Shown piece after piece: positions 2,716 to 47,975 of a stretch of 64,000 nucleotides of DNA. Each line of letters begins with the position of its first letter. Position 1 is the first letter of the stretch. Source of the stretch: Escherichia coli (GTDB lineage: Bacteria; Pseudomonadota; Gammaproteobacteria; Enterobacterales; Enterobacteriaceae). The position numbers were made by a program, and so were the translations under genes. The DNA is taken from assembly GCF_024223415.1 (NCBI RefSeq), contig NZ_CP100500.1; one strand, 5' to 3'. Under the pieces are notes generated by a model, which was not told the origin of the DNA, did no database searches, and was given only the letters and a program-made list of their open reading frames with translations.

Positions 2716-2839
2716 GTAAAACTCCATTTTATTTAATCAAGGAACTGGTGACTCTCACCAGGGGCTATATAGGATATGCCTAATACCGTGGCGTGAGCAG
2801 TCCGGAACTGGAGTAGAACTCTTAGTAAAAAGCACTATT

Positions 2840-9454: not shown

Positions 9455-9490
9455 TAAAAAAACCTGCTGGTGAGGCAGGTTCTTTTATTT
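9455..9490 (-). terminator. Intrinsic terminator downstream of yehK (minus strand)
   Basis: Hairpin aacctgctgg/ccagcaggtt with flanking A/T runs. Confidence 0.5.
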
Positions 9491-9650
9491 ACTATTTTCA
9501 GGCCTAACACCACAGCCTGTGCAACATCGTGTTCCAACGAACGAATTATAACCACGGCTGGACCCCGTTGCAATTAAGATAATGAGATTTATAATCCAGG
9601 CCATTGGGACGTTGCGCCGGATCGGACCAATTTGAATTATTTAGAGTATA

Positions 9651-27197: not shown

Positions 27198-28022
27198 TTA
27201 TCGCATTATGCCCATGAAGCCATGTACGCCCATATACACACCGACTAAGCCAATCAACAGACTGGAAAAATAGGGGGCGCGTTTAGCGAGAGTGTTAAAT
27301 CCGCTCCAGCGTTTTGCGACCTGCTGAACGCTGATTGCTGCGCCAACGCCTACGGTGACAAGCGTTAACGCCAGGCCAATGCTGAAACTGACGACCAGTG
27401 TTGCGCCCAGTGTCAGGGCTTTCAACTGAATGCAAATCAACAGCACGGTAATTGCTGCCGGACAGGGGATAAGACCACCTGTTAAGCCAAATAACAAAAT
27501 TTGCCAGTTGGTGACCTCTCTACCATCAAAGCGTCGTTTAATATCATTGGCATGGGCTCGTGCATGGGCATCCTGATACTCGCCATGTTCGTGATGGTGA
27601 TGATGTCCATGGTCGTGGTGATCTTCGTGATCGTGGTGATGATGTTCATGATCATACTCGTGCATATTCTCCAGCCAGTTGCGTTCGCCGCGCCAGGTAC
27701 GCCAGAACATCCAGAACGCGGTGCCAATAATGATCACTGCGGAAATCAGCTGGAGCCACGGTTCTGCTGATTGAGCAGTAAAGCGCTTGCTGATCACCAT
27801 CCCGCCAAAGGCAATTAACCAGACCACTGCGGTATGCGAAATAGTTGCTGCCAGTCCGAGCATCACCGCCTGTTTAATGGTGCCTTTGATGGCGATGATA
27901 AACGCCGCCATCATCGTTTTTGAGTGCCCTGGTTCCAGGCCATGAAGCGCACCAAGTAAGATGGCGCTGGGGATGAAGAACCAGGCGTTTCCTTGCTGAA
28001 GAAGAGTTGTAAATTCGGTCAT
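27198..28022 (-). CDS. rcnA: Nickel/cobalt efflux protein RcnA
   Basis: Membrane protein with a long His-rich loop (HEYDHEHHHHDHEDHHDHGHHHHHEHGE) visible in translation. Confidence 0.9.
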   Translation of the reverse strand: MTEFTTLLQQGNAWFFIPSAILLGALHGLEPGHSKTMMAAFIIAIKGTIKQAVMLGLAATISHTAVVWLIAFGGMVISKRFTAQSAEPWLQLISAVIIIGTAFWMFWRTWRGERNWLENMHEYDHEHHHHDHEDHHDHGHHHHHEHGEYQDAHARAHANDIKRRFDGREVTNWQILLFGLTGGLIPCPAAITVLLICIQLKALTLGATLVVSFSIGLALTLVTVGVGAAISVQQVAKRWSGFNTLAKRAPYFSSLLIGLVGVYMGVHGFMGIMR

Positions 28023-28059
28023 GATAATAATTCTTAGTATTAATTCGGCAATCTGATTC

Positions 28060-28095
28060 TACTCCCCCCCCAGTACCTGATACTACCCCCCAGTA
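28060..28095. promoter_or_regulatory. Two RcnR operator-like sites (TACT-C-tract-AGTA) in the rcnA-rcnR divergent region
   Basis: tactccccccccagta at 28060-28075 and tactaccccccagta at 28081-28095. Confidence 0.7.
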
Positions 28096-28143
28096 GATTA
28101 ATAGTGCTATGATTTTTCATATTCTTGTTAACCAGGTGTTGCC

Positions 28144-28416
28144 ATGTCTCATACAATCCGTGATAAACAGAAACTGAAAGCGCGTGCCAGTAAGATTCAG
28201 GGCCAGGTCGTGGCGCTCAAGAAAATGCTCGACGAGCCGCACGAATGCGCTGCAGTTTTACAACAGATTGCTGCTATCCGTGGCGCGGTAAACGGTCTGA
28301 TGCGGGAAGTGATTAAAGGTCATCTGACGGAACACATCGTTCACCAGGGGGATGAGCTAAAACGTGAAGAAGATCTGGATGTCGTTCTGAAGGTGCTGGA
28401 TTCATATATCAAATAA
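28144..28416 (+). CDS. rcnR: Ni/Co-responsive transcriptional repressor RcnR
   Basis: 90-aa CsoR/RcnR-family protein. Confidence 0.9.
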
Positions 28417-28504
28417 TTTATTAACGCGATTGTAAAACTGCCGTTTTTCCTCGTTTACAACGCGTGCGCTGGACATTACCATCCTCCTCTGCGATTTATC
28501 ATCG

Positions 28505-28557
28505 CAACCAAACGACTCGGGGTGCCCTTCTGCGTGAAGGCTGAGAAATACCCGTAT
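28505..28557 (+). ncRNA. 5' fragment of thiM TPP riboswitch aptamer, severed from thiMD by the island insertion
   Basis: Sequence aaccaaacgactcggggtgcccttctgcgtgaaggctgagaaatacccgtat matches the 5' half of the thiM thi-box leader, then diverges into island DNA. Confidence 0.75.
28544..28557. repeat. attL core: 14-bp direct repeat AGAAATACCCGTAT
   Basis: Identical 14-mer found again at 39954-39967 at the other island boundary; both lie within riboswitch sequence. Confidence 0.75.
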
Positions 28558-28643
28558 TTTCTCATTTAGTGTTTTTTGTGGTTCGGGGTTGTTCGTGGTT
28601 GTTTGTGTATGTGTTTGATATATATTGAATTATTGTGTTTTCT

Positions 28644-28718
28644 TGTTTGTTGTTGTTCGTCGTTGTTCGTAGAGCTTCAACAAAATGTGTGGTCAGTTGT
28701 GTGGTCAGTTTTTTGAGG
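28644..28718. repeat. Left copy of ~75-bp near-identical direct repeat just inside the island end
   Basis: ttgttcgtcgttgttcgtagagcttcaacaaaatgtgtggtcagttgtgtggtcagtttt shared with 39821-39895; contains internal TTGTTCGT and TGTGGTCAGTT sub-repeats. Confidence 0.85.
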
Positions 28719-28745
28719 CTGGAGGACTGAAAAGAGGATCTGATA

Positions 28746-29969
28746 GTGGGAAAAGCACTAAACAAACTGAGCGATTCGACGTTAAAAAAATTGGCGTCTG
28801 TCCAAGCAGAAAAAGAGCGTTTTTACTCCGACGGGGGCGGGCTGGAGATTAAACACTCAAAGGGCGGCAAATTAACCTGGTATTTCCGGTACCGAACGGG
28901 AGGCCGTGAGGTTGCCGCAGAGCGGTTAAAGCTGGGGGCTTACCCTGAATTGTCGCTGAAAGCTGCAAGGGAAAAACGCGCACAGTGCCGGGCATGGCTG
29001 GCTGAGGGTAAAAACCCCCGTTATGAGTTGTGCGCCACAGTACAGGAAGCGCTAAAACCCGTTACGGTGAAGGAGGCGATTAACTACTGGCTGGATGAAT
29101 ATGCGAAGGATAACCGCAAAGACTACATAAAGCTGGTGCAACGTATGGATAAGCACATCATTTGCCATATAGGGGCAATTCCCCTTGATAAGTGTGATAC
29201 AAGGCAGTGGATCGCATGTTTTGACCGTGTACGAAAAAAAGCACCAGTAGCAGCAGGGCACGTCATGCAAACCTGCAAACAGGCGCTAAAGTTCTGCCGC
29301 AGGAGACGCTACGCGTTCAGTAATGCCCTGGACGATTTGATCGTCAGCGATGTGGGTAAGAGAGCAGAAATTCGCGAGAGGGTGCACAGCAACAGCGAAT
29401 TAAAGGAAATTTTACGCGCTATTGATGGTGATGTGTTCGCGCCTTACTACAGCGCGTTAATGCGCTTGCTGATTGTGTTCGGGTGCAGAACGGCAGAGGT
29501 CAGACTTTCAGAGATCAAAGAATGGGATCTGAAAGAAATGTTGTGGACAGTGCCAAAAGAGCATAGCAAAACGAAGGTAACGATATTCAGGCCAATCCCC
29601 GATGGCATTTTGCCGTTCATTCAGAAGCTGGTGGAGCAGAACCGGCATACAGGGTTATTACTCGGAGAACTGAAAAAAGATACCACGGTAGCGCAATATG
29701 GGCGAAATGCGCATAAGCGGCTTAACCAGGAACACTGGACGCTGCATGACTTTCGCCACACGTTTACAACGATGCTGAACGATTTAGGTGTCGATCCGCA
29801 TATCGTGGAGCACATCACAGCGCATCAGATGCCCGGTCAGCAAAAAACCTATAACCATTCACGCTATTTACAGGCGAAGCGAGACGCTCTGAATCTGTGG
29901 GTTGAGCGCCTCGATGTGCTGGCTGGAAATCATGAAAATATTGTCATATTAAGGGCTGAAAATGAATAA
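28746..29969 (+). CDS. int: Tyrosine recombinase, P4-type integrase
   Basis: N-terminal arm-binding-like segment (SDGGGLEIKHSKGGKLTWYFRYR) and C-terminal catalytic region (HDFRHTFTT...); apparent GTG start. Confidence 0.9.
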   Translation: MGKALNKLSDSTLKKLASVQAEKERFYSDGGGLEIKHSKGGKLTWYFRYRTGGREVAAERLKLGAYPELSLKAAREKRAQCRAWLAEGKNPRYELCATVQEALKPVTVKEAINYWLDEYAKDNRKDYIKLVQRMDKHIICHIGAIPLDKCDTRQWIACFDRVRKKAPVAAGHVMQTCKQALKFCRRRRYAFSNALDDLIVSDVGKRAEIRERVHSNSELKEILRAIDGDVFAPYYSALMRLLIVFGCRTAEVRLSEIKEWDLKEMLWTVPKEHSKTKVTIFRPIPDGILPFIQKLVEQNRHTGLLLGELKKDTTVAQYGRNAHKRLNQEHWTLHDFRHTFTTMLNDLGVDPHIVEHITAHQMPGQQKTYNHSRYLQAKRDALNLWVERLDVLAGNHENIVILRAENE

Positions 29970-30747
29970 TCTGGGCCGTGTATATCATACGCTGCCAATG
30001 GCAGCTAAAAAAATGGGATGTACTGTAGAGGATATTCTACATTTTGGTGCAACTAACCGACTTGAAATATGTGCGTATATTGATGATATTGAACAGAGAA
30101 AAGATTATTGCACTTTTAATGTGTTTTTTGATAATGAAGATAGCGAGAATAGTTTTTCTAAAACTATAAATAAATATAATTCCATATTTACTGACATGTA
30201 TGAAATATCATTGTTTAATTATAATGATGAGTTTTGTGTTGATGATGAGCGTATGGTTATTGAAGGTTTGTATGCTAATCATATGAAAGGCTTTTTTGCA
30301 ATACCATCTGAATTTCTTGTCGAAGTTGAATTGTCAAGTGCCTGTGAAATCATAAATCTATCGCCTCGTTATTTATATACACCGAAAGGTTATGGTGATT
30401 ATATTCGGTTGGATAGTATAGAAGGTCTTTCTATTCCAGAAAACAGGCTCGTGATATTCGATAGTGAGATATCGGGTTTTAATTATCAAAAGAAACCTAA
30501 ATATGCCGGAGGTGAAAGAGAATCACCTAAAACCAGAGCTAAAAAAGCCGAGATAATACCTGCTCTCATAAAACTGATCCCTGAGATGCAAGATGTGGAT
30601 TTGGAGGATACACCCGTATCCAAAATTGCAGAAATGATAGAGGTTATTGCTGCACAAAGAGGGGTTGAGTTACCTAGCACTCACAGGCAGACATGGCAGA
30701 AATATTTAGGGCGTGATGCTGGTGACGTTCCAAAACGTCAAAAGTGA
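29962..30747 (+). CDS. Hypothetical cargo protein, AT-rich, translationally coupled to int
   Basis: 261-aa ORF overlapping int stop by 8 bp; noticeably lower GC than flanks; no motif recognised. Confidence 0.6.
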   Translation: MNNLGRVYHTLPMAAKKMGCTVEDILHFGATNRLEICAYIDDIEQRKDYCTFNVFFDNEDSENSFSKTINKYNSIFTDMYEISLFNYNDEFCVDDERMVIEGLYANHMKGFFAIPSEFLVEVELSSACEIINLSPRYLYTPKGYGDYIRLDSIEGLSIPENRLVIFDSEISGFNYQKKPKYAGGERESPKTRAKKAEIIPALIKLIPEMQDVDLEDTPVSKIAEMIEVIAAQRGVELPSTHRQTWQKYLGRDAGDVPKRQK

Positions 30748-30803
30748 TATCACGTACAGATAGTGTGATATCACACAAACGGCATTTTACCACCGCCTAG
30801 AAT

Positions 30804-30837
30804 CGTCCTCGTTCGGCAACGTTCGAGGACGTTTTTT
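30804..30837 (+). terminator. Hairpin plus T-run immediately upstream of alpA start
   Basis: cgtcctcg...cgaggacg followed by TTTTTT then ATG; the 3' arm contains the GAGGA Shine-Dalgarno-like sequence. Confidence 0.5.
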
Positions 30838-31062
30838 ATGAATCAAAATACACAATTTCAATCACTATCAGATCGCGTAATCCGTGAGGATGAATGCCGT
30901 AAGTTAACAGGAGTGTGCCGCACTACACGCTACGAACTGGAGAAAAAAGGGAGCTTTCCGTCTCGCCGTAATCTTGGTGGGCGTTCTGTAGGTTGGCTGC
31001 TGTCCGAGGTTATGGAATGGGTTAAAAGCCGGGATCGCATTAATTCAGGCAAGGCAGCGTAA
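30838..31062 (+). CDS. alpA: AlpA-family phage transcriptional regulator
   Basis: 74-aa small HTH protein with typical AlpA-like pattern (SDRVIREDECRKLTGVCRTTRYELEKKGSFP). Confidence 0.8.
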   Translation: MNQNTQFQSLSDRVIREDECRKLTGVCRTTRYELEKKGSFPSRRNLGGRSVGWLLSEVMEWVKSRDRINSGKAA

Positions 31063-31200
31063 AGGGGAGTATATGACACATAAAACAAAGGCGACCGGGG
31101 GCGGTCGCCAATGGGAAAACACTAAACATAAGCCCGGCCATCATAGCGATTTGCTGGCTGGTGGGCAATGTGTCCAGTGTGGTGGCTTGCTGGTGGATTG

Positions 31201-31428
31201 TCAGCCAGGCGGTCGGTTTTTGCCGGATTTAAGCCGCCGTGGGTATTTATCGACAAAATCTTCAAGGGCAAATTTTTCTGGTGGCACTAAGCGCGGCGCT
31301 GGTGGTGGTATTTTTGTTCTGGTTAGTTCTTCCTCAAGTCTGGCGCAGGCTTCTGACTGCCTTTGCCGGATGATTTCATCATCTTGCGTTTGCGTGTCTT
31401 GTATTGGTGATAGTGTGTTGTTGGTCAT
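31201..31428 (-). CDS. Hypothetical protein, second gene of leftward operon
   Basis: 75-aa ORF downstream of the RHH-like gene on the minus strand, followed by a hairpin at 31094-31112. Confidence 0.45.
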   Translation of the reverse strand: MTNNTLSPIQDTQTQDDEIIRQRQSEACARLEEELTRTKIPPPAPRLVPPEKFALEDFVDKYPRRLKSGKNRPPG

Positions 31429-31485
31429 GATACTGCCCTGTAAAGCAATGCGCCGTAGTACCTCACACCACGGCGCTGATAGTGA

Positions 31486-31683
31486 TTATTCTGATTCTTT
31501 GGCCTTGCGGCGCTGTTCATATTTTAATTTGCGTCCACAGGCATCTAAGACCCATGCGGAAAAATTAGCACTAGGATTAGTTAATTTTTCTTGTTCAACG
31601 CTGGCATCAATCCCATCTATAAGCTCATGTGGGAATCGAATATTTTTCTTTGCTGATTTGTTGTTTGTGTTACCACTAGACAT
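31486..31683 (-). CDS. Putative ribbon-helix-helix DNA-binding protein, candidate island repressor
   Basis: 65-aa ORF; N-terminal KKNIRFPHELIDGID resembles the beta-strand/helix of CopG/Arc-type RHH proteins; divergent from rightward operon. Confidence 0.45.
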   Translation of the reverse strand: MSSGNTNNKSAKKNIRFPHELIDGIDASVEQEKLTNPSANFSAWVLDACGRKLKYEQRRKAKESE

Positions 31684-31710
31684 TGATGCACCTCACTTAA
31701 ATGGACTTTA

Positions 31711-31790
31711 TGGGCGCACACAATACAGCAAAAAAAGTGAGAAGTTAAGTATTGACATGTGCGCACACATGATTCTAATCTGTGCGCACA
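31711..31790. promoter_or_regulatory. Divergent promoter/operator region with three copies of palindrome TGTGCGCACA
   Basis: tgggcgcaca (31711-31720), tgtgcgcaca (31758-31767), tgtgcgcaca (31781-31790); TTGACA at 31752-31757 immediately precedes the second site. Confidence 0.55.
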
Positions 31791-31882
31791 GTTTGGGTTG
31801 CATTGCTCAAATTAAGCAACGCCCCGCAGTGCTCGCAACACATGCAGGGCGTCTAACCAAACCGTTAATAGGAGTAACGATT

Positions 31883-32083
31883 ATGGCTGGAACACAGCAT
31901 ACCCCACGCCTTGCGCACACACAAACCGCCTTTGTGTGGCGTTTTCTGGCACTGAGTGCCGGAGAATCTCAAATTATCCACGTAACCGCCTGGACGGAAC
32001 GCGAAGCGCGTAACCGTTGCCCGTCCGGTTGTGTCGCTGTATTCGCCGCCCGTATCCGTCAGGGGGAAACCTATGCACAATAA
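31883..32083 (+). CDS. Small protein, possibly Icd-like (host cell division inhibitor family)
   Basis: 67-aa ORF with good RBS (aggag), first gene of rightward operon; family assignment from memory of similar small P4-like proteins, weak. Confidence 0.4.
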   Translation: MAGTQHTPRLAHTQTAFVWRFLALSAGESQIIHVTAWTEREARNRCPSGCVAVFAARIRQGETYAQ

Positions 32084-32303
32084 AACAACACCGGACGCAG
32101 CAGAAGAAGCAATGCAAATACTGATACGTGCGCTCGTTGATGTTACCCACATGGTGGAGATTATGGAGAGAAAATCACAGTCGGAGCACGACAAAAGAAA
32201 ACTTAAAACAATAAAAATAATTGCCAAAAACTCGCTGATAAAAGTTACAGACATCCTTAATGAGGACATTAAAAGAATCAGGGAGAAAGTGTGTGATGCA
32301 TAA
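32073..32303 (+). CDS. Hypothetical protein
   Basis: 76-aa ORF, start overlaps upstream stop, RBS ggggga. Confidence 0.45.
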   Translation: MHNKTTPDAAEEAMQILIRALVDVTHMVEIMERKSQSEHDKRKLKTIKIIAKNSLIKVTDILNEDIKRIREKVCDA

Positions 32304-32523
32304 AATACCTTTTGATGTTCTTATTCATTCTGAAAACGCATTAATCCGTGCAAAGGAAATGGACGCATTACTACTTAAGTTAATTGATGTGCCGGAAAGT
32401 GGCGATGAATCTGATTCAATAATGTTTTCTGCCGTGCGTACGCTATTAACGCATGTTATTAATGAATTAAATACAGTGATGGCAATTCACGAGAATAATA
32501 AAGCGCAGCACACCGGAGAATAA
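32296..32523 (+). CDS. Hypothetical protein
   Basis: 75-aa ORF, start overlaps upstream stop, RBS gggaga. Confidence 0.45.
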   Translation: MHKIPFDVLIHSENALIRAKEMDALLLKLIDVPESGDESDSIMFSAVRTLLTHVINELNTVMAIHENNKAQHTGE

Positions 32524-32528
32524 AAACC

Positions 32529-32828
32529 ATGAAAAATAAAAATTCTGGCGTTAATGCCAGCGGCCCCGCTCGGCCTGAATTTATGAACGGCGATATTTAC
32601 CGCGACCAGTACGGCGGCACGGTAACGATTAAAGGCGTGGAGGAACGGCGCATCACTTACCGCCGTGAAGGCTACGAATATGATTGCGTGATGCCTGTTT
32701 ATCAGTTCCGGCGTGATTTTTCTCTGGTACAGGCAGCGCCCCGCAGTAAACCAACCAGCAGGGAGAAAGCACGCGCCAATATTCAGGAAATAAAAAAGAT
32801 GCTTAACGTATTCAGGGGTAAAAAATGA
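32529..32828 (+). CDS. Hypothetical protein
   Basis: 99-aa ORF, ATGA-coupled to the primase gene. Confidence 0.45.
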   Translation: MKNKNSGVNASGPARPEFMNGDIYRDQYGGTVTIKGVEERRITYRREGYEYDCVMPVYQFRRDFSLVQAAPRSKPTSREKARANIQEIKKMLNVFRGKK

Positions 32829-34573
32829 AACTGGCACCGAACGTAAAAAAACAGCCGCGTGGAATAAAACACAAAGACACAGAGGTGATTATCTTTGCGG
32901 GTAGTGATGCCTGGGCGCACGCGAAACAGTGGCAGGAACAGGACGGCCCCGCATCCGGCGATGATGTGCCGCCTGTGTGGCTCGGGCCAAATCAGCTTGC
33001 TGAACTGGATGCACTGAAAATTGTACCGGAGGGAAAAAAACGCGTAAGGCTGTACAGGGCCGGAGAACTGGATTTGGTGGAGACCAAAAAGATTGGTCAG
33101 AAGCTGGCGGCGGCAGATATTCAGGATGCGAATTTTTACTCTGAAGGAATGCACGGCCAGAAGGTGCAGAACTGGCGGCGCTATCTGAGTGCTGAGCGTG
33201 AAAATATTGCCGCAGGGCTTACCATGCCGGAACAGAAAAAAGCACAACTTTCACAGATGGCAGACAGTGAACGGGCACAGCTTCTTTCTTCCCGCTTTGA
33301 TGGTGTCTGCGTCCATGCAGAAAGTGAAATCGTTCACGTATGGCGCGGCGGGGTATGGTGTCCGGTCAGCACAATGGAACTTAGCCGCGAAATGGTGGCG
33401 ATCTATTCAGAGCACAGGGCCACTTTCAGCAAGCGCGTAATCAATAACGCCGTGGAAGCGTTAAAAGTTATTGCCGAACCAATGGGCGAGCCGTCCGGCG
33501 ATTTGCTGCCGTTCGCCAATGGTGCGCTTGACCTGAAAACGGGGGAATTTTCCCCGCACACGCCGGAGAACTGGATCACCACGCACAACGGCATTGAGTA
33601 CACGCCACCAGCACCAGGGGAGAATATCTGCGACAACGCGCCAAACTTTCATAAATGGCTTGAGCACGCAGCCGGAAAAGACCCGCGCAAGATGATGCGT
33701 ATATGTGCCGCGCTGTACATGATTATGGCGAACCGGTACGACTGGCAGATGTTTATTGAGGCCACCGGAGACGGCGGGAGCGGCAAAAGTACATTCACAC
33801 ACATAGCCAGCCTTCTGGCAGGGAAACAGAACACGGTAAGCGCTGAGATGACATCGCTTGATGATGCTGGTGGGCGTGCGCAGGTTGTCGGGAGTCGGCT
33901 TATTGTCCTGGCAGACCAGCCGAAATATACAGGCGAAGGAACGGGCATCAAGAAAATCACGGGCGGAGACCCCGTGGAAATAAACCCGAAATATGAGAAG
34001 CGTTTTACGGCGGTAATCAGGGCGGTGGTGCTGGCTACCAACAATAACCCGATGATATTCACCGAACGGGCCGGAGGTGTGTCACGTCGTCGCGTAATTT
34101 TCCGTTTCGACAATATCGTCAGTGAGGCTGAAAAAGACAGGGAGCTACCGGAAAAGATTGCGGCTGAAATCCCTGTCATTATCCGCCGCTTGCTGGCGAA
34201 CTTTGCCGACCCTGAAAAGGCACGGGCTTTACTCATTGAACAGCGAGACGGTGATGAAGCTCTGGCAATAAAGCAACAGACGGATCCGGTTATTGAGTTT
34301 TGCCAGTTTCTGAATTTTCTGGAGGAAGCGCGCGGCCTGATGATGGGCGGCGGCGGTGACTCTTCCAGGTACACGACCAGAAACAGCCTTTACCGCGTCT
34401 ATCTGGCGTTTATGGCGTATGCAGGCAGGAGCAAACCGCTAAACGTAAATGACTTTGGCAAGGCTATGAAGCCAGCGGCGAAAGTTTACGGACATGAATA
34501 TATAACGCGCAGGATTAAAGGGTTTACGCAAACCAACGTGACAACAACAGACGACTGCGACGCGTTTTTATAA
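32825..34573 (+). CDS. Phage/plasmid primase, P4 family (NTPase/helicase domain)
   Basis: 582-aa ORF with Walker A GDGGSGKST and D5/P4-alpha-like C-terminal NTPase architecture. Confidence 0.8.
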   Translation: MKLAPNVKKQPRGIKHKDTEVIIFAGSDAWAHAKQWQEQDGPASGDDVPPVWLGPNQLAELDALKIVPEGKKRVRLYRAGELDLVETKKIGQKLAAADIQDANFYSEGMHGQKVQNWRRYLSAERENIAAGLTMPEQKKAQLSQMADSERAQLLSSRFDGVCVHAESEIVHVWRGGVWCPVSTMELSREMVAIYSEHRATFSKRVINNAVEALKVIAEPMGEPSGDLLPFANGALDLKTGEFSPHTPENWITTHNGIEYTPPAPGENICDNAPNFHKWLEHAAGKDPRKMMRICAALYMIMANRYDWQMFIEATGDGGSGKSTFTHIASLLAGKQNTVSAEMTSLDDAGGRAQVVGSRLIVLADQPKYTGEGTGIKKITGGDPVEINPKYEKRFTAVIRAVVLATNNNPMIFTERAGGVSRRRVIFRFDNIVSEAEKDRELPEKIAAEIPVIIRRLLANFADPEKARALLIEQRDGDEALAIKQQTDPVIEFCQFLNFLEEARGLMMGGGGDSSRYTTRNSLYRVYLAFMAYAGRSKPLNVNDFGKAMKPAAKVYGHEYITRRIKGFTQTNVTTTDDCDAFL

Positions 34574-34597
34574 TTTTTTGTAATTGCTGTCTACCCT

Positions 34598-34815
34598 GTC
34601 TACCTGAGTAAAGAAAAATACATTTAATTCAGTGCATTAAGTTAGGTAGATAGCCTTTTTTTACTGTCTACCCACTATCTACCCTCTCTACCTGATTTTA
34701 CCAGAATCAGACAGGGAGGTAGACACGGGGTAGATAGTGGATAAAAGCACTCTACCCCGCTGAAAGCCGCGCCATTACTGGCATGAGGGCCACTAAGGTA
34801 GGTAAGGTAGACAAG
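34598..34815. repeat. Iteron cluster, putative island replication origin
   Basis: Many direct and inverted copies of GTCTACC/TCTACCC/GGTAGA motifs immediately downstream of the primase gene. Confidence 0.6.
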
Positions 34816-34861
34816 GGGAGGCACAACTCAAAACTTTTTAAACGAGGGGGTAAAAATAAAA

Positions 34862-35119
34862 ATGCACACATCAGAAAAATTTAACAATCAGAAGAAATCA
34901 CATAACCGCGCCATTGACCTTACAGAGCACTGGCTGAGGGTGGCGATAAAAATCATCGACCGCAACGCGGGAGAAGGATACGCGAAAGCACATCCCGAAC
35001 TGATAAGCGCATTCATGACCACAGCGGCGGCAAACTTTGCCACGTTGACAGAACGGGAGATTGCCGAAGCGGAACAGGTGACAACCATCAATGTTAAAAC
35101 CGGAGAGCAGACAGCATGA
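34862..35119 (+). CDS. Hypothetical protein
   Basis: 85-aa ORF, ATGA-coupled to ssb. Confidence 0.45.
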   Translation: MHTSEKFNNQKKSHNRAIDLTEHWLRVAIKIIDRNAGEGYAKAHPELISAFMTTAAANFATLTEREIAEAEQVTTINVKTGEQTA

Positions 35120-35526
35120 CAGCACAGATAGCGGCTTACGGGCGGCTGGTGGACGACCCGCAGACAAAACAGACCAGCAAGGGAACACCGATGACGCTGG
35201 CACGTATGGCGGTATCGCTGCCATGCAGCCAGGCACAGGATGGACAGGCGACGTTATGGCTATCGGTCATCGCATTTGGTAAGCAGGCCGACTTCCTGGC
35301 TAAACATCAAAAAGGCGACGTTGCCAGCGTATCCGGCACGATGCAGGTCAGCCAGTGGACCGGACAGAACGGGGAAACGCGGCAGGGTTATCAGGTTATT
35401 GCAGACAGCGTAATCAGTGCCCGTGCGGCACGTCCTGGCGGGAACAGACGCAAAACCACAGGCACACAGGGTAATCAGCCACCAGCGGGAGGCGATGACC
35501 CTTACGGTGATGATATTCCGTTCTGA
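35116..35526 (+). CDS. ssb: Single-stranded DNA-binding protein
   Basis: OB-fold-like N-terminus, Gly/Pro-rich linker and acidic C-terminal tail ending DDIPF. Confidence 0.8.
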   Translation: MTAQIAAYGRLVDDPQTKQTSKGTPMTLARMAVSLPCSQAQDGQATLWLSVIAFGKQADFLAKHQKGDVASVSGTMQVSQWTGQNGETRQGYQVIADSVISARAARPGGNRRKTTGTQGNQPPAGGDDPYGDDIPF

Positions 35527-35536
35527 GGGGGTGACG

Positions 35537-35809
35537 ATGGTACATGACCGGATAGCGGAGGAACTGGAGGCGAAAGGATTTTACCGGAGGGCGGCCGCGC
35601 GATGGGGTGAAGTTATGAGGCTGGTGAGCACTGACAAGGAGCGCGAACAGGTGGCAATGCGACGGCTGGAATGTTCACAGAAGGCACAGAGGCCACCGGA
35701 GCCGCCGGATGATTTAGGCGCTCTGAAAAGGTCAGTTAATCGCACTGAAAAACAAATGGGGATAGCTGGTATTGGCAAAGCAATATGGCGCAACTACCCG
35801 CAGAAGTGA
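35537..35809 (+). CDS. Small putative transcriptional regulator, PerC-like
   Basis: 90-aa ORF; resemblance to PerC-family prophage regulators is from memory and weak. Confidence 0.4.
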   Translation: MVHDRIAEELEAKGFYRRAAARWGEVMRLVSTDKEREQVAMRRLECSQKAQRPPEPPDDLGALKRSVNRTEKQMGIAGIGKAIWRNYPQK

Positions 35810-35815
35810 GCACAC

Positions 35816-35839
35816 AGCCGGAGCAATCCGGCTTTTTTG
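35816..35839 (+). terminator. Intrinsic terminator
   Basis: agccggagcaatccggc followed by TTTTTT. Confidence 0.6.
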
Positions 35840-35843
35840 CACC

Positions 35844-35887
35844 CAAAAAAAGCCCGATAAGTACAGGAGGCATCTTATCGGGCTTTT
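35844..35887. terminator. Second hairpin, bidirectional-looking
   Basis: A-run, stem gcccgataag...cttatcgggc, T-run. Confidence 0.55.
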
Positions 35888-35966
35888 GCATATGAGGTTT
35901 TTTTTGGTGCACTGACACACATGATCGGGATAATCATTTCATAATTTGCAACGTAACTCAATATTG

Positions 35967-36015
35967 TTGCGCAAAATGCAATCATGATTATAATCAGGAC
36001 TGGATGAACATCCAG
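35967..36015 (+). promoter_or_regulatory. Sigma70-like promoter with downstream dyad operator ahead of the capsid operon
   Basis: TTGCGC (35967-35972), 16-bp spacer, TATAAT (35989-35994), then perfect dyad ctggatgaacatccag (36000-36015). Confidence 0.5.
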
Positions 36016-36050
36016 TTATGATTTTTTAAGTCAAAGAGGAATTTCTGACT

Positions 36051-36257
36051 ATGGCAGAAGAGAAAAAAGGCGGGGTGACGGTCTACATAAGCCCCGACAT
36101 CGTGGAGGCGCTCAAGGAACGCCACCAGCAGAATGTAAAAGCAGGCATTGCGGCAGGACTTGATCCGCTGGCGATGGTTGAGCCGTCAACAGGCTGGCAG
36201 GTGCGTACCTATTTACGTGCGGCGCTGGGTATCAATCAGGTTCACGGAGGTGAATAA
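36051..36257 (+). CDS. Hypothetical small protein, first gene of capsid operon
   Basis: 68-aa ORF with RBS, stop overlaps capsid gene start. Confidence 0.45.
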   Translation: MAEEKKGGVTVYISPDIVEALKERHQQNVKAGIAAGLDPLAMVEPSTGWQVRTYLRAALGINQVHGGE

Positions 36258-37312
36258 TGACAGGCAAAGCAACGGCACTTACAACTAACCAGCTTTTCGC
36301 GTACCTGAATCGCGGGGATATTTCGGAATTAAAATTCAGTCCGCTGTTTACCACGCTGTTTTTCCCGAACGTGGCGACCTTCAACACCCAAAACATCATG
36401 CTGGACACCCTGGACATTGAAGAGGTTACGATGTCAGCGTTCTGTTCGCCTATGGTGGGTAGTCAGGTCCAGCGCGATAAAGGGTACGAAACCAGCACAA
36501 TCAAACCTGGCTACATGAAGCCAAAGCACGAAATCGATCCAACAAAGACCATCATGCGCATGGCTGGAGAAGATCCGGCACAGCTTAACGACCCAACCTA
36601 TCGCCGTATGCGCCTGATTACTGGCAACATGCGCCGCCAGGTAAACGCCATTAAAGCGCGTGTTGAATGGCTGGCGGTGAATGCGGTAACGACCGGAAAA
36701 AACATCATTGAGGGCGAAGGCATAGAACGCTATGAAATCGACTGGAAAATACCGGAAAACTGCATCATACAGCAGGCCAGTGGTAAAAAATGGTCCCAGC
36801 AGGATAAAGACATGCACGACCCAATCTATGACATCGAGCTTTATGCTGATCAGGCAGGTTGCCCCGCCAACGTCATGATTATGGGCGGTGAGGTATGGCG
36901 CACATTACGCAGCTTTAAAAAATTCCGTGAACTGTACGATCTTTCCCGTGGATCAGAATCCGCCGCCGAGCTGGCCTGTAAAAACCTGGGCGAAGTGGTG
37001 AGCTTTAAAGGCTATCTTGGTGATCTGGCCCTTATCGTCTATTCCGGCAAATACACTGACAGCGACGGCACCGAAAAATATTTCCTTGAGCCTGATTTGC
37101 TGGTCCTGGGTAACACCAATAATAAAGGGCTGGTGGCATATGGTGCGATTATGGATCAGGAAGCGGTAAGAACGGGCGCAACGCAAAACATGTACTACCC
37201 GAAAAACTGGATTGAGGACGGCGATCCGGCGATTGAGTACGTGCAGACGCACAGCGCACCGCAGCCGGTACCGGCAGATATTCGCAAATTTGTTACCGTC
37301 AAAATTGCTTAA
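36257..37312 (+). CDS. Major capsid protein, lambda gpE-like
   Basis: Clear blocks of similarity to lambda gpE from memory: KFSPLFTTLFF, KPGYMKPKHEIDP, EDPAQLNDPTYRRMR, YSGKY, YPKNWIEDGDPA. Confidence 0.85.
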   Translation: MTGKATALTTNQLFAYLNRGDISELKFSPLFTTLFFPNVATFNTQNIMLDTLDIEEVTMSAFCSPMVGSQVQRDKGYETSTIKPGYMKPKHEIDPTKTIMRMAGEDPAQLNDPTYRRMRLITGNMRRQVNAIKARVEWLAVNAVTTGKNIIEGEGIERYEIDWKIPENCIIQQASGKKWSQQDKDMHDPIYDIELYADQAGCPANVMIMGGEVWRTLRSFKKFRELYDLSRGSESAAELACKNLGEVVSFKGYLGDLALIVYSGKYTDSDGTEKYFLEPDLLVLGNTNNKGLVAYGAIMDQEAVRTGATQNMYYPKNWIEDGDPAIEYVQTHSAPQPVPADIRKFVTVKIA

Positions 37313-37323
37313 CGGGGGATTCT

Positions 37324-37659
37324 ATGGACGCTCCATATATTGAGTTATTTGCAGGCAGCCAGCAGGTATCCACGACGCTGGTACATTTTGCCGCTGATGC
37401 TGGCGTTATTCAGGAATTTACCCCGCTGATGCTGGCAGACAATGGCGAGTTTAAGGCGTGGGATGGTCAGGAATCTGGCAAAGCTGTTTATCTGACTTCG
37501 CACCCCGTGGACACGTCAAAGCAGAAATCAGCACAGTGTTACAAAACGGGGATATTCAATATTGCCGCCGTTAACTGGCCTGACAGCGTCGACACCGATG
37601 CGAAAAAATGCGCCGCCTTTGCGGGTTCCGGCGTATCCGTTCAGCCGCTGGCCCGATAA
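37324..37659 (+). CDS. Head decoration protein, lambda gpD-like
   Basis: Similarity to lambda gpD blocks: TPLMLADNGEFKAWDG and YKTG.F....WPDSVDTDAKKCAAFAGSGVSV. Confidence 0.75.
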   Translation: MDAPYIELFAGSQQVSTTLVHFAADAGVIQEFTPLMLADNGEFKAWDGQESGKAVYLTSHPVDTSKQKSAQCYKTGIFNIAAVNWPDSVDTDAKKCAAFAGSGVSVQPLAR

Positions 37660-37671
37660 GCAGGGGGAACG

Positions 37672-38085
37672 ATGGCAACGAATGAAAGTATCATGACGCT
37701 ACCGCTGGCGAGTAAATTTAAAGCCGAAGCGCGGGCAATGGCTGACAGAGGTTTATCAACCTACGAGGCCATACACCGACTAAACAAACTGGAAGAACAG
37801 GACAAGCCGCGCGCTGATGCGATTATGGCGCTTCATGAATCTGACGACTACCAGCCGCTGTTACGTGCAATGGCTAACGTGCCTTGTATCGATGTTGGTA
37901 CGGCTAAAAGCATCCTTAGCATGACCATAGAGCAGGAACGCCCGAAGGTTGCACCAGAGCTTACTTCAGCCTTTGAAAACTTTATGGACATGCACAGCCC
38001 GAAAGCCGTATCAGCTGGCATGGCATACGATGGCAGAACCCCGTGCGATGACGGCGACATCGACCGCATACTGAAAACCATCTGA
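37672..38085 (+). CDS. Hypothetical head-module protein
   Basis: 137-aa ORF directly after the decoration gene; no motif recognised. Confidence 0.45.
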   Translation: MATNESIMTLPLASKFKAEARAMADRGLSTYEAIHRLNKLEEQDKPRADAIMALHESDDYQPLLRAMANVPCIDVGTAKSILSMTIEQERPKVAPELTSAFENFMDMHSPKAVSAGMAYDGRTPCDDGDIDRILKTI

Positions 38086-38090
38086 GACAA

Positions 38091-38116
38091 GGCCGGAGAA
38101 ATCCGGCTTTTTTTGC
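38091..38116 (+). terminator. Intrinsic terminator after capsid operon
   Basis: aggccggagaaatccggc followed by TTTTTTT; near-duplicate of the hairpin at 35816. Confidence 0.6.
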
Positions 38117-38200
38117 GGGTCCTTTCCGGCATGTGGACCCGTTACGGGGCGTCGACCTCGCACGTTTTCGCTATTTATGACGTTTTTCCGTGAAGGTGAC
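38115..38200 (+). other. Lambda-like cos site (cosQ-cosN-proximal cosB), copy 1, upstream of terS-like gene
   Basis: gggtcctttccgg...gttacg GGGCGTCGACCT cgcacgttttcgctatttatga closely resembles remembered lambda cos (gggtcctttccgg...gttacg GGGCGGCGACCT cgcgggttttcgctatttatgaaaa). Confidence 0.7.
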
Positions 38201-38247
38201 ACCACCACCACTTGATTAATATTTAACCATGTAGTTAAGGTAACATT

Positions 38248-38682
38248 ATGATTGATAAAGCTTGTTTTGTAAGTCAGCAGGAAATAGCTGAACATTTCAA
38301 TGTTAACAGAACCACTATTCGCGCATGGACCAAACAGGGGATGCCGTATCTTAATGCGGATCGCGGAAAGTCTGGCGGTTATCACATCGGGCATACATTG
38401 TTTTGGTATTCAGGTAAAAGCCATCTTCAGACCATCGGATATCACGTAGAAACCAGTGCGCTGGAAAAAATTATGTTTGCCAGGCTGCTTTCATCTGAGC
38501 GTGACGAGTACTCCAGTGAAGAAACAGAACATCGATTTGATGAAGGTTTGCAGATTTACGGCTATTCACCGGAAGATGTGAGCAAGGCACGAAATAAAAT
38601 GGCTGGCTTTCTGGCTGGGTGGCGTCATGCCGTAAGCGTTCGCCGTGCCAGCATGGAGCAATCAGCCGATACAGAACAGTAA
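38248..38682 (+). CDS. Terminase small subunit-like protein (Nu1-like winged-helix N-terminus)
   Basis: N-terminus QQEIAEHFNVNRTTIRAWTKQGMPYL parallels lambda Nu1 KKQLADIFGASIRTIQNWQEQGMPVL; C-terminal part is divergent. Confidence 0.7.
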   Translation: MIDKACFVSQQEIAEHFNVNRTTIRAWTKQGMPYLNADRGKSGGYHIGHTLFWYSGKSHLQTIGYHVETSALEKIMFARLLSSERDEYSSEETEHRFDEGLQIYGYSPEDVSKARNKMAGFLAGWRHAVSVRRASMEQSADTEQ

Positions 38683-38714
38683 AGCCGATAACTTGTTAAT
38701 CACGCGCAGCAATG

Positions 38715-38850
38715 CGTGTGATTTTTGCACACTTCCGGTTAACGGGTACGATGTCCGGTTTGTTTGTACATTTTTTGCACATGTCCGGTTCGCAGAAAGC
38801 ATGTTTTTATATTTTTCAGATAGTTAACTTGCAGAGAAACCGGACATGGA
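38715..38850. repeat. Direct and inverted repeats TTTTTGCACA..TCCGGTT / AACCGGACATGG downstream of terS-like gene
   Basis: tttttgcacacttccggtt (~38722), ttttttgcacatgtccggtt (~38771), aaccggacatgg (38838-38849). Confidence 0.6.
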
Positions 38851-38930
38851 TCCCGAAAAATTTTCATAAATAGTGAAAACGCGCGGGTTCGACGCCCCGT
38901 AACGGGCCATAATTCCAGAAGGACCCGACG
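38845..38930 (-). other. Lambda-like cos sequence, copy 2, inverted relative to copy 1
   Basis: Reverse complement reads cgggtccttctgg...gttacg GGGCGTCGAACC cgcgcgttttcactatttatgaaaatttttcggg; long imperfect inverted repeat of 38115-38200. Confidence 0.65.
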
Positions 38931-38960
38931 ACACCAGACTATCAGAGCGATGGGGGCACA

Positions 38961-39242
38961 ATGACAGAAGCCGAACTACTGGGATTAATCCGCCGCGTTA
39001 CCGGAATCAGCCAGCAGCATGACGAACAGGCCACGCAGCCGGACAGCGTGACCGCCGAAAATTATGTGCGTGTTGTTGCGGAGGTGATGCGCCGTGACGG
39101 TATTGAGCTTAACGGCGTGGATATGCGCGACATACGGATCCGCGTTCTGGAAATGCTGGCATACCGTCGCCGCGTGCAGACGTACAGGGAAAAAGCAAAA
39201 ATAACGTACCACTGGAAGAAGCCGGAACGACTGCGTACGTAA
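38961..39242 (+). CDS. Hypothetical protein
   Basis: 93-aa ORF downstream of cos copy 2. Confidence 0.4.
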   Translation: MTEAELLGLIRRVTGISQQHDEQATQPDSVTAENYVRVVAEVMRRDGIELNGVDMRDIRIRVLEMLAYRRRVQTYREKAKITYHWKKPERLRT

Positions 39243-39374
39243 TACGTACGGACATCGAGATAACGCAAAATTGCGCTGGCTACATCCCTCACATCTGAGG
39301 ACTGATAACAAGCTGCCTGAAAGACAGTCACAAACTACGAAATTTTCGCAGTTTAATTAATGGTCAGCTTAATC

Positions 39375-39665
39375 GCTAACCCGCTGATATTTTCGGAAAC
39401 ATCAATTTGAGGAAGTCGGCGCGGTAACTCGCTGAACTTAAAGCAAAGCGCAAAATTGCGCTGATTACTGGTTGGAATTGTTCCAGAGTGCAAATTTGCA
39501 CTCTGGCCTAACCCGTTGATTATTTCGAAAACCTGCAATGCAGGAAATCGGGGAAGTAAGCCTAAGCTATTGATTGTTTCGAAAACCACCATTGGGGGAT
39601 GTCGGGAAAGTAAGACTAACCCATTGATTCTTCCACAATCCTCAATGTGAGGAGGCCGGACATCG
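39375..39665. repeat. Four ~54-bp imperfect repeats (three in tandem), each with a variable central CAAT-containing near-palindrome
   Basis: Units at ~39375, 39506, 39560, 39614 share CTAACCC.TTGATT.TTTCGAAAAC and TCGGG.AAGTAAG flanks around a variable centre (e.g. cctgcaatgcagg, cctcaatgtgagg). Confidence 0.7.
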
Positions 39666-39820
39666 TGACAGAGCGTGACAACCAGGTAACTAATCTCGCT
39701 GGTGGGCGTGATGTCGATATGGTGATCCCCATAACGGGTTATCCGTGATCATCCACCAGCTTCATGGCAGATAGCCGGAAAATGATAACGGTTAAGCAAA
39801 ACTGCCAGCAAATTTCCCTT

Positions 39821-39895
39821 TTGTTTGTTATTGTTCGTCGTTGTTCGTAGAGCTTCAACAAAATGTGTGGTCAGTTGTGTGGTCAGTTTTGAGGT
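39821..39895. repeat. Right copy of ~75-bp near-identical direct repeat just inside the island end
   Basis: Same ~60-bp core as 28644-28718. Confidence 0.85.
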
Positions 39896-39953
39896 TTTTA
39901 ATTCTTATGTGCTGAAAAACTTATTAATTATCAACTGATAACAAAAATTAGTA

Positions 39954-39967
39954 AGAAATACCCGTAT
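39954..39967. repeat. attR core: 14-bp direct repeat AGAAATACCCGTAT
   Basis: Identical to 28544-28557; continues directly into riboswitch 3' sequence. Confidence 0.75.
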
Positions 39968-40048
39968 CACCTGATCTGGATAATGCCAGCGTAGGGAAGT
40001 CACGGACCACCAGGTCATTGCTTCTTCACGTTATGGCAGGAGCAAACT
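39954..40048 (+). ncRNA. 3' part of thiM TPP riboswitch (P4/P5 plus expression platform) retained upstream of thiM
   Basis: gaaatacccgtatcacctgatctggataatgccagcgtagggaagtcacggaccaccaggtcattgcttcttcacgttatggcaggagcaaact ATG matches the thiM leader 3' half. Confidence 0.75.
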
Positions 40049-40837
40049 ATGCAAGTCGACCTGCTGGGTTCAGCGCAATCTGCGCACGCGTTACACCTTT
40101 TTCACCAACATTCCCCTCTTGTGCACTGCATGACCAATGATGTGGTGCAAACCTTTACCGCCAATACCTTGCTGGCGCTCGGTGCATCGCCAGCGATGGT
40201 TATCGAAACCGAAGAGGCCAGTCAGTTTGCGGCTATCGCCAGTGCCTTGTTGATTAACGTTGGCACACTGACGCAGCCACGCGCTCAGGCGATGCGTGCT
40301 GCCGTTGAGCAAGCAAAAAGCTCTCAAACACCCTGGACGCTTGATCCAGTAGCGGTGGGTGCGCTCGATTATCGCCGCCATTTTTGTCATGAACTTTTAT
40401 CTTTTAAACCGGCAGCGATACGTGGTAATGCTTCGGAAATCATGGCATTAGCTGGCATTGCTAATGGCGGACGGGGAGTGGATACCACTGACGCCGCAGC
40501 TAACGCGATACCCGCTGCACAAACACTGGCACGGGAAACTGGCGCAATCGTCGTGGTCACTGGCGAGATGGATTATGTTACCGATGGACATCGTATCATT
40601 GGTATTCACGGTGGTGATCCGTTAATGACCAAAGTGGTAGGAACTGGCTGTGCATTATCGGCGGTTGTCGCTGCCTGCTGTGCGTTACCAGGCGATACGC
40701 TGGAAAATGTCGCATCTGCCTGTCACTGGATGAAACAAGCCGGAGAACGCGCAGTCGCCAGAAGCGAGGGGCCAGGCAGTTTTGTTCCACATTTCCTTGA
40801 TGCGCTCTGGCAATTGACGCAGGAGGTGCAGGCATGA
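40049..40837 (+). CDS. thiM: Hydroxyethylthiazole kinase
   Basis: 262-aa ORF, translation recognised as ThiM. Confidence 0.93.
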
Positions 40838-41634
40838 AACGAATTAACGCTCTGACGATTGCCGGTACTGATCCGAGTGGTGGTGCGGGGATTCAGGCCG
40901 ATCTTAAAACCTTCTCGGCACTTGGCGCTTATGGTTGCTCAGTTATTACTGCACTGGTGGCGCAAAATACCCGTGGCGTACAGTCGGTGTATCGCATTGA
41001 GCCTGATTTTGTCGCCGCCCAGCTCGATTCGGTGTTCAGCGATGTGCGAATCGATACCACTAAAATCGGTATGCTGGCGGAAACCGATATTGTTGAAGCG
41101 GTGGCAGAACGGTTGCAACGTTATCAGATCCAAAACGTGGTACTCGACACCGTTATGCTGGCAAAAAGCGGCGACCCGCTGCTTTCACCTTCGGCGGTTG
41201 CTACGCTGCGCAGTCGATTATTGCCACAGGTTTCATTAATAACGCCAAACTTGCCCGAAGCTGCCGCCTTGCTCGACGCGCCACACGCGCGCACCGAACA
41301 GGAAATGCTGGAACAAGGGCGATCGCTGTTGGCGATGGGCTGTGGCGCAGTGCTAATGAAAGGTGGTCATCTGGATGATGAGCAAAGCCCGGACTGGCTG
41401 TTTACCCGCGAGGGTGAACAACGGTTTACCGCACCGCGCATTATGACCAAAAACACCCACGGCACTGGTTGTACACTCTCTGCGGCGTTGGCTGCACTAC
41501 GCCCGCGCCATACAAACTGGGCTGACACCGTACAGGAGGCAAAAAGCTGGCTTTCATCGGCGTTAGCCCAGGCCGACACGCTGGAAGTTGGTCACGGTAT
41601 TGGTCCGGTTCACCACTTCCACGCCTGGTGGTGA
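40834..41634 (+). CDS. thiD: Hydroxymethylpyrimidine/phosphomethylpyrimidine kinase
   Basis: 266-aa ORF overlapping thiM stop; PfkB-like kinase motifs. Confidence 0.93.
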
Positions 41635-47839: not shown

Positions 47840-47975
47840 ACGCCTTATACGGACAACACCACCCCGTAGGACGGATAAGGCGTTTACGCTGCATCCGGCA
47901 ACCTATGCCTGATGCGACGCTGAAGCGTCTTATCATGCCTACATAGCACTGCCACGTATGTTTACACCGCATCCG
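47840..47975. repeat. REP/BIME-type palindromic elements
   Basis: gccggatgcagcgtaaacgcc-type units and tgtttacaccgcatccggca seen after fbaB. Confidence 0.5.

Follow-up and report, generated by a model that had tools for sequence, protein, structure and literature searches.

A phage-inducible chromosomal island inserted in the thiM riboswitch of Escherichia coli, with its integrase gene downstream of a host promoter

In a stretch of 64,000 nt from the Escherichia coli contig NZ_CP100500.1 (GCF_024223415.1), the whole of which is called the window below, the promoter and the first part of the leader of the host gene thiM are followed, on the same strand, by the integrase gene (int) of a mobile element. 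This region is the left attachment site (attL) of a phage-inducible chromosomal island (PICI) of 11.4 kb, whose bacterial attachment site (attB) lies inside the thiamine pyrophosphate (TPP) aptamer of thiM. Since the island carries no replacement for the RNA that it interrupts, the riboswitch is split and, judging from the sequence, neither junction is a working riboswitch and TPP sensing is lost at the left one. Does the host promoter then set the level of the integrase, or does the island? The elements of the left junction follow one another on a single strand, in the order thiM promoter, 69 nt of leader, 188 bp of island arm and int:

28454-28482, plus strand: host thiM promoter, sigma-70-like, TTTACA-17-TACCAT (consensus scan; 10.6 bits with a position weight matrix (PWM), 99.995th percentile of the window)
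28489-28557, plus strand: retained thiM leader, +1 to +69 (69 nt), with the start site taken from published numbering
28508-28557, plus strand: 5' half of the aptamer, 50 of 97 nt (5' strand of P1, P2, P3 and J3-2, the pyrimidine-sensor arm)
28544-28557, plus strand: identity block of attL, AGAAATACCCGTAT, 14 bp (direct repeat; host homology stops at 28557)
28558-28745, plus strand: P' arm of the island and int leader, 188 bp (T 46%, G 29%, C 8.5%; alignment of nine copies)
28599-28626, plus strand: candidate int promoter, TTGTTT-16-TATATT (PWM 11.1 bits; prediction only)
28686-28710, plus strand: doubled motif, TGTGGTCAGTT twice, about 148 bp downstream of the core centre and within the repeat 28643-28712
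28746-29969, plus strand: int, a P4-type tyrosine integrase of 407 aa (GTG start; ribosome-binding site (RBS) AGAGGA at 28733-28738, 7 nt upstream)
29962-30747, plus strand: open reading frame (ORF) of 261 aa, overlapping the end of int by 8 nt and matching no family

The host side of this junction is exact. Positions 28417-28557 are the rcnR-thiM spacer of E. coli, and over 28144-28557 the sequence agrees exactly, or nearly so, with rcnR-thiM in E. coli genomes that lack the interruption. With exact host sequence as flanks, the elements found at the left junction are not there by chance. A query of 757 nt beginning at rcnR found matches in 5,414 of 5,426 complete E. coli genomes, and the match ends at 28557 in 5,343 of them and runs on into int in 71. 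The start site of thiM was placed at 28489, with ctgc at 28489-28492 and, in uninterrupted sequence, the ATG 150 nt further, according to the numbering of Bastet et al. 2017 (PMC5499598), in which U152 (mutant U152A) is the U of the AUG, G142 (mutant G142C) belongs to the RBS and CUGC serves as initiating tetranucleotide. The promoter sequence itself is the same in seven island-bearing and in empty-site E. coli genomes. As for int, PGAP picks the same start in seven other genomes, and the Salmonella relatives have an ATG at the aligned position. An earlier note on this DNA had put the thiM promoter and about the first 50 nt of the aptamer at the left junction, on the strand of int (GTG at 28746), with a translationally coupled cargo gene, and had concluded that TPP-dependent control should be lost there; all these elements stand where it placed them, the next ORF overlapping int by 8 nt, with the small correction that the exact left breakpoint is 28557/28558, and the loss of TPP control is borne out by the covariance scores given below.

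At the other end of the island, the same locus resumes with the missing half of the riboswitch:

39864-39888, plus strand: the other doubled motif, in the P arm and inside the repeat 39821-39890 (about 84 bp upstream of the core centre)
39954-39967, plus strand: identity block of attR (the right attachment site), AGAAATACCCGTAT, 14 bp
39968-40048, plus strand: 3' half of the aptamer (P4, P5 and 3' strand of P1) and thiM expression platform with the Shine-Dalgarno sequence (exact match of CTGATCTGGATAATGCCAGCG)
40049-41634, plus strand: thiM and thiD, intact but severed from their promoter and the 5' half of the riboswitch (ORFs; annotated as intact in island-bearing genomes)

The two halves can be traced element by element. 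With the intact K-12-type locus as positive control, the TPP riboswitch (Rfam RF00059, gathering threshold 54.3 bits) is a 97-nt aptamer scoring 71.2 bits (locus L002, 1865-1961; PGAP and Rfam), which corresponds to 28508 onward in the window. The crossover lies behind the 3' strand of P2, where the junction toward P4 begins, so that the 3' half is now 11.4 kb downstream of the 5' half, behind island DNA, together with the expression platform and the start codon of thiM (ATG, 40049), and the pyrimidine-sensor arm (P2-J3-2-P3 with UGAGA, 28508-28557) is separated by the same distance from the pyrophosphate-sensor arm (P4-P5, 39968-40014). Both fragments stay below the threshold, with 19.5 bits for the left one (28508-28603) and 36.4 bits for the right one (39880-40014, without P2 and P3), and an Rfam scan of the whole window at the gathering threshold returned no TPP element. 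Two ways in which the island might have kept a riboswitch were considered and rejected. A chimeric riboswitch controlling int would have to be built from the left fragment and island sequence, which together reach the 19.5 bits and offer no surrogate for P4 and P5, while a repair at attR is contradicted by the 36.4 bits, the missing P2 and P3, and the UAAGA that the attR copy has in place of UGAGA. A search with the intact leader found the riboswitch whole in 5,338 of 5,424 matching E. coli genomes and split in 86 (1.6%).

The element responsible occupies 28558-39967 (11,410 bp) and is bounded by the 14-bp direct repeat. Core repeats at both ends, an attB that is empty in 5,338 of the 5,424 genomes and an adjacent tyrosine recombinase identify the left end as an attL. 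Gram-negative PICIs are recognized by a size of about 10-15 kb, an order of int, alpA and primase/rep followed by a packaging-interference or capsid module, the lack of tail and lysis genes, and an att site that prophages do not use. The island has the corresponding size, the int-alpA-primase order followed by a capsid module, and a site already catalogued for PICIs. Its genes encode the P4-type tyrosine integrase, the 261-aa ORF, an AlpA-like protein, a P4-family primase and SSB, and further lambda-E-like major head, head decoration, scaffold-like and TerS-like proteins; no tail or lysis gene is found among them. The integrase matches PHROG 1 (E=4.6e-67), PF13356 and PF00589 are found on the representative of its 99%-identical cluster, and the gene is full-length, its translation showing the GCRTAE (box I R), HDFRH and C-terminal Y motifs. 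At the position of the 261-aa ORF, other copies of the island encode a DUF6387 protein. The gene on which, as argued below, excision is expected to depend lies a little further on:

30838-31062, plus strand: AlpA-like excisionase/regulator (PHROG 2790, E=1e-17)

On the thiM mRNA, the identity block AGAAATACCCGTAT is the segment +56 to +69, which covers J3-2, the P2 3' strand and the beginning of J2-4, and in attL, with the TG before it and the TTTCTCA after it, it forms the inverted repeat TGAGAAA-N9-TTTCTCA, whose two halves are probably the core-type sites of Int. The P' arm holds GTTCG-type repeats and an A/T-rich patch. A direct repeat of 70 nt (28643-28712 and 39821-39890, 99% identical) contains the doubled TGTGGTCAGTT in each arm. 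This doubled motif is invariant in the E. coli copies and near-invariant in those of Salmonella, and in relatives the arm motif changes along with the integrase, as expected for arm-type sites, which the doubled motifs are therefore predicted, and probably, to be. In a related clade of PICI integrases, doubled motifs have a similar geometry, at 81 bp on the upstream side of the attP centre and 132 bp on the downstream side (PMC10111431). The attPs of related PICIs at tqsA, smrA, clpS/cspD and thiM (locus L005, 2780-3000, and the supplement of PMC10111431) were also seen to have a post-core sequence (TTT-T-ATTTAGTGTTTTTTG) and an arm layout in common and to differ in their cores, a pattern that suggests a modular attP whose core alone is changed for a new target.

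Can transcription that starts in the host reach int? The chimeric leader (28489-28745) is 257 nt long, and a consensus scan of 28000-30100 found no terminator on either strand, including the interval between rcnR and the thiM promoter. Every hairpin followed by a U-tail in this leader was further scored with a function of the d'Aubenton-Carafa type, and no intrinsic terminator was recognized in the leader, the best d-score being -30.2, compared with +9.2 to +28.1 for four control terminators of the window that are real or likely (two inside the island, CyaR and OrzO). Two structures deserve attention nonetheless. At -11 kcal/mol, the P2-P3 arm that is retained closes with four G-C pairs, and UAUUUUCUCAUUU / UAUUUUCU comes directly after it; the inverted repeat of the core creates at the junction a new 7-bp hairpin (UGAGAAA/UUUCUCA, with the N9 as loop) followed by UUUAGUGUUUUUU. 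With d-scores of about -30 to -35, both are weak as terminators, and an intrinsic terminator created by the junction was rejected on these scores, being kept only as a minor possibility.

Rho does not appear to fare better. The sites at which it loads (rut) are C-rich and G-poor, and the composition of the leader is the opposite, with 28.7% G and 8.5% C in the arm and 4-13% C in all 78-nt windows between the att core (28541) and int. With only 8.5% C, the leader is a poor Rho substrate, and termination by Rho within it is, by composition, unlikely. As neither a terminator nor Rho-friendly sequence separates them, read-through from the thiM promoter into int is plausible from what the sequence permits. 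Transcripts of rcnR could enter int as well, because no terminator separates rcnR from the thiM promoter. The proposal of the earlier note that host transcription may run into int thus stands in part: three permissive features, the co-orientation, the lack of a terminator and the C-poor leader, make it plausible. The arm is strongly strand-asymmetric, and a leftward antisense transcript of it, at about 29% C and 8.5% G, would be suited to Rho, the reverse of the sense strand.

Even if host transcription enters int, there is no reason to expect that it is tied to thiamine. In E. coli thiM, TPP blocks the initiation of translation through the riboswitch and, secondarily, Rho terminates transcription within codons 20-34, where Bastet et al. 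mapped the rut site (PMC5499598). The transcriptional fusions of that study with six codons of thiM showed no effect of TPP, and its thiM fusions were induced with arabinose, so that the regulation by TPP is independent of the thiM promoter (PMC5499598). All the parts needed for this control (the 3' half of the aptamer, the expression platform and codons 20-34 of thiM) are now at the right junction, and the half-aptamer retained at the left lacks the pyrophosphate-sensor helix. The earlier coupling of integrase level to a thiamine-regulated promoter consequently loses its basis, given that TPP acts after initiation and through parts that are no longer upstream of int; a host-derived int transcript would, with this arrangement, be constitutive and blind to TPP.

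A second point on which the earlier note has to be amended is its assumption that int has no other source of mRNA, since the island arm itself carries a promoter-like site, the candidate at 28599-28626. With 11.1 bits versus 10.6 for the thiM promoter, it is, like the latter, in the top 0.005% of the positions of the window, and a site of at least 10.5 bits is found at its position or within 5 bp of it in five of seven diverged E. coli copies. There is also a logical argument: the island has to integrate from its circular form in naive cells, in which int has no host promoter upstream, and this requires that int be expressed independently of the host. Lastly, there is precedent. In KplE1, the promoter of intS overlaps attL and is repressed by Int together with the recombination directionality factor (RDF), and the same has been predicted for most tRNA-linked integrases in this orientation (Panis et al. 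2010, PMC2951348). The likeness to KplE1 extends to the location of int just inside attL and on the strand of the target, to the arm-type sites between core and int, and to the promoter-like site in the arm; the differences are that here the target is a riboswitch in an mRNA leader instead of a tRNA gene, that it is not restored by the insertion, and that the promoter is only predicted. It is from this logic and this precedent, and not from sequence statistics, that an island promoter for int appears likely.

The explanation proposed here, which is held with slightly more confidence than doubt, is that both promoters contribute to int and that the island promoter and AlpA decide how the element behaves. 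The P4-type integrase recombined the attP of the island with the attB inside the thiM aptamer. Some of the transcripts started at the thiM promoter (and possibly at that of rcnR) would then probably reach int and make a low, constitutive and TPP-blind contribution to its mRNA. If the thiM promoter does feed int, the junction would be a clean example of a satellite whose basal integrase level is set by a promoter of the host, something that has been floated for tRNA-linked integrases and rarely demonstrated. The most likely host-independent source would be a promoter in the P' arm, with 28599-28626 as the candidate, repressed by arm-bound Int and AlpA, and excision would be expected to hinge on AlpA induced by the helper and not on the level of int mRNA. 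The induction of PICIs is known to require AlpA (bioRxiv 10.1101/2022.09.08.507074). Several observations weigh against this explanation. As many as 11% of the dinucleotide shuffles of the T-rich arm score as high as the candidate promoter, which is missing from that position in the copy A34, and the Salmonella copies have a 10.2-bit site further downstream instead. On the side of the host contribution, Int and IHF bound to attL could block the elongating polymerase, and the P2-P3 arm with UAUUUUCUCAUUU and the junction hairpin with UUUAGUGUUUUUU might terminate some transcripts in spite of their negative scores.

If such obstacles were fully effective, the junction would be insulated, that is, the structures with their U-rich tract, bound Int and IHF, or Rho would stop host transcription, and int would be expressed from the island promoter only. 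This possibility, which is the less favoured one but deserves to be taken seriously, can point to the P2-P3 arm followed by UAUUUUCU and the 7-bp hairpin followed by UUUAGUGUUUUUU, to a T-rich stretch after the core that is common to the related PICI attPs at tqsA and smrA, to the many repeated motifs of the arm as putative protein-binding sites, and to the published paradigm in which Int and the RDF occupy attL (PMC2951348). Opposed to it are the d-scores of the two hairpins (about -30 to -35 versus +9 to +28 for the terminators of the window), the negative consensus scan and the 8.5% C, which makes the loading of Rho unlikely. Protein roadblocks, moreover, are usually leaky.

At the opposite extreme, most of the int mRNA of the integrated island could stem from the thiM promoter, with the host setting the integrase level and linking it to thiamine. 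This is improbable, even though the promoter is co-oriented with int, lies 257 nt upstream of it with no terminator between and feeds a leader that is a poor Rho substrate, the candidate promoter of the island is statistically indistinguishable from composition, and promoter-like sites are depleted in the P arm, which would precede int in the circle (the best has 6.5 bits, equalled or exceeded in 92% of shuffles). The link with thiamine is baseless, since regulation by TPP is post-initiation and was mapped to parts that are now at attR (PMC5499598), and the half-aptamer at the left junction has no pyrophosphate-sensor helix; the same int/att module occurs behind a different 2.3-kb segment in O157:H7-type genomes, and relatives of 55-56% identity lie behind the acrR terminator; and int must be expressed from the circle in a new host. 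Finally, an assembly chimera or a dead, non-mobile remnant without a functional integrase can practically be discarded, as the same junction is present in 71 complete genomes, int is full-length with its motifs, three types of cargo are known and the site is empty in 98% of genomes.

The distribution of the module bears on the same question. About 75 complete E. coli genomes match the integrase gene over its full length, at 92-99% nucleotide identity (strain UMNF18 and an ST648 strain are among the carriers of the island), and the same int/att module carries at least three types of cargo, namely that of the island in the window, that of EcCI224 and that of islands of the capsid-forming PICI (cf-PICI) type (PEC178 and O157:H7 MB41-1); comparison of these differing cargos indicates repeated mobilisation. 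The integrases of Salmonella (76, 72 and 68% aa identity) use exactly the same crossover in the thiM aptamer of that genus. What lies upstream of the module is more variable. In genomes of the O157:H7 type, the K-12-type sequence ahead of the aptamer has given way to a segment of 2.3 kb (1468-3738 of locus L013, from MB41-1). This segment is found in 340 E. coli genomes, mostly of the O157:H7 type and with or without the island, encodes three minus-strand genes (an outer membrane protein, a hypothetical protein and a helix-turn-helix-like protein) and reaches about 17 nt past the K-12 start site. Since this segment replaces the thiM promoter, the riboswitch of those strains must be transcribed from a different promoter, and the island has also been found behind this context. 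More distant relatives of the integrase use other sites: one of 67% identity occupies the cspD/clpS spacer, co-oriented with clpS, those of 55-56% lie downstream of the acrR terminator, and one of 60% is next to a divergent SBP gene. The idea that this integrase clade always inserts behind a host promoter was accordingly refuted, and from these other sites, along with the other upstream contexts, it follows that the module is independent of any one host promoter.

The consequences for the host may be found at the right junction. ThiD is needed for the de novo synthesis of thiamine, and thiM and thiD are left without their native promoter and TPP sensor in some Salmonella and in roughly 86 of the 5,424 complete genomes of E. 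coli. No outward promoter was detected for them in the right arm (best site 6.5 bits, with 92% of shuffles scoring at least as high, and none in the consensus scan), nor was a plus-strand terminator between the last gene of the island and thiM. Thermodynamic folding of the chimeric thiM leader (39800-40078) gave an unpaired probability of 0.07 for the Shine-Dalgarno sequence, versus 0.64 in the ligand-free wild type, and this model is in line with an expression of thiM and thiD that may be low or dependent on the island. Carriage of the satellite could therefore alter the thiamine physiology of the cell and its excision would restore it, in which case the right junction may matter more than the left one. 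A more far-reaching proposal, regarded here as quite speculative, would be that in E. coli and Salmonella a lineage of PICI integrases (68-99% aa identity) took a riboswitch aptamer for its attB, comparable to the use of tRNA genes by other integrases but without repairing it, and thereby brought about a reciprocal regulatory swap: the thiM promoter would supply a constitutive trickle of Int for the excision triggered by AlpA, thiMD would rely on transcription from the satellite, and carriage and excision would reversibly switch the control of thiamine salvage and biosynthesis in about 1.6% of E. coli.

Neither the site nor the type of element is new as such. Both are already catalogued: the attL and attR of rcnR_thiM.EcCI224, with the block AGAAATACCCGTAT, are listed in the supplement of PMC10111431, where the site figures as intergenic and without mention of a riboswitch, a word that has no match in the main text of that paper. 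Apart from this supplementary listing, which is the only trace, no paper discussing thiM or any riboswitch as an att site was found in the literature. The catalogued "intergenic" site is in fact a structured RNA, and the conservation of this RNA may account for the use of one 14-bp target in E. coli and Salmonella alike.

Compared with EcCI224 (strain Ecol_224), the reference E. coli PICI at this site, the island of the window has the same attL, attR and block AGAAATACCCGTAT, an integrase belonging to the same 75 matches (92-99% at the nucleotide level) and the same gene order (int, the gene at the DUF6387 position, alpA, primase), but a different cargo, since EcCI224 carries a ClpP-protease/major-capsid fusion and a DUF1441 protein in place of the lambda E-like capsid, decoration, scaffold-like and TerS-like proteins. 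The cf-PICIs, whose prototype is EcCIEDL933 (bioRxiv 10.1101/2022.09.08.507074), include islands that use this int/att module at thiM (those of PEC178 and O157:H7 MB41-1), and these carry capsid, protease, portal, head-closure, head-tail connector, HNH, TerS and TerL genes; at 11.4 kb, the island in the window is smaller than these and lacks portal, protease and TerL. With the helper-embedded PICIs (PMC10111431) it has in common one co-oriented doubled motif per arm, at about 84 and 148 bp here and at 81 and 132 bp there, and an integration co-oriented with the interrupted transcription unit, so that upstream transcription enters the island. The two nevertheless differ in the motif (TGTGGTCAGTT here, TGTATTGC there) and in the target, which is a regulatory RNA of the host instead of a late gene of a prophage, and no cis-regulation by a helper is implied here.

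Regarding transcription from outside, the coupling of a tRNA promoter to an integrated element appears in Panis et al. only as a cited suggestion (PMC2951348). In ICEclc (Pcirc/Pint), too, the promoter upstream of int changes between the circular and the integrated form. Its strong promoter is the element's own and is active only in the circle, whereas here the extra promoter is that of the host and would act only in the integrated form.

The remaining features of the locus and of the island are of lesser weight. The host genes on the left are the following:

27198-28022, minus strand: rcnA, host gene
28144-28416, plus strand: rcnR, host gene upstream of the thiM promoter (ORF and annotation)

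Between alpA and the primase region of the island, an ORF of 336 aa (31073-32083, plus strand) is of low complexity, rich in Cys and Ser, and overlaps shorter ORFs on both strands; other copies have small genes there (Icd-like, YlcI/YnfO, DUF4222), and the ORF is probably not a real gene. Just past the primase gene, the region 34587-34747 contains repeated units of the type CTGTCTACCC (34587-34607 and 34675-34695) and an inverted repeat (34669-34684 / 34728-34743), and gave spurious matches to microRNA families in Rfam; it is probably the iteron-type replication origin of the island. In the right end of the island, where 700 bp are non-coding, a 54-nt repeat occurs three times at 39374-39613 (consensus about GCCTAACCCGTTGATTATTTCGAAAACC...GGAAGTAA), with a 16-nt palindrome, CCAGAGTGCAAATTTG, at 39483-39506, and this repeat region may be a packaging (cos/pac) or regulatory region. 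Elsewhere in the window, the other Rfam matches at the gathering threshold were three ordinary features of E. coli, the antitoxin RNA OrzO-P (9456-9531, 99.9 bits), the REP-derived naRNA4 (47869-47939, 64.5 bits) and the small RNA CyaR (56258-56343, 100.7 bits).

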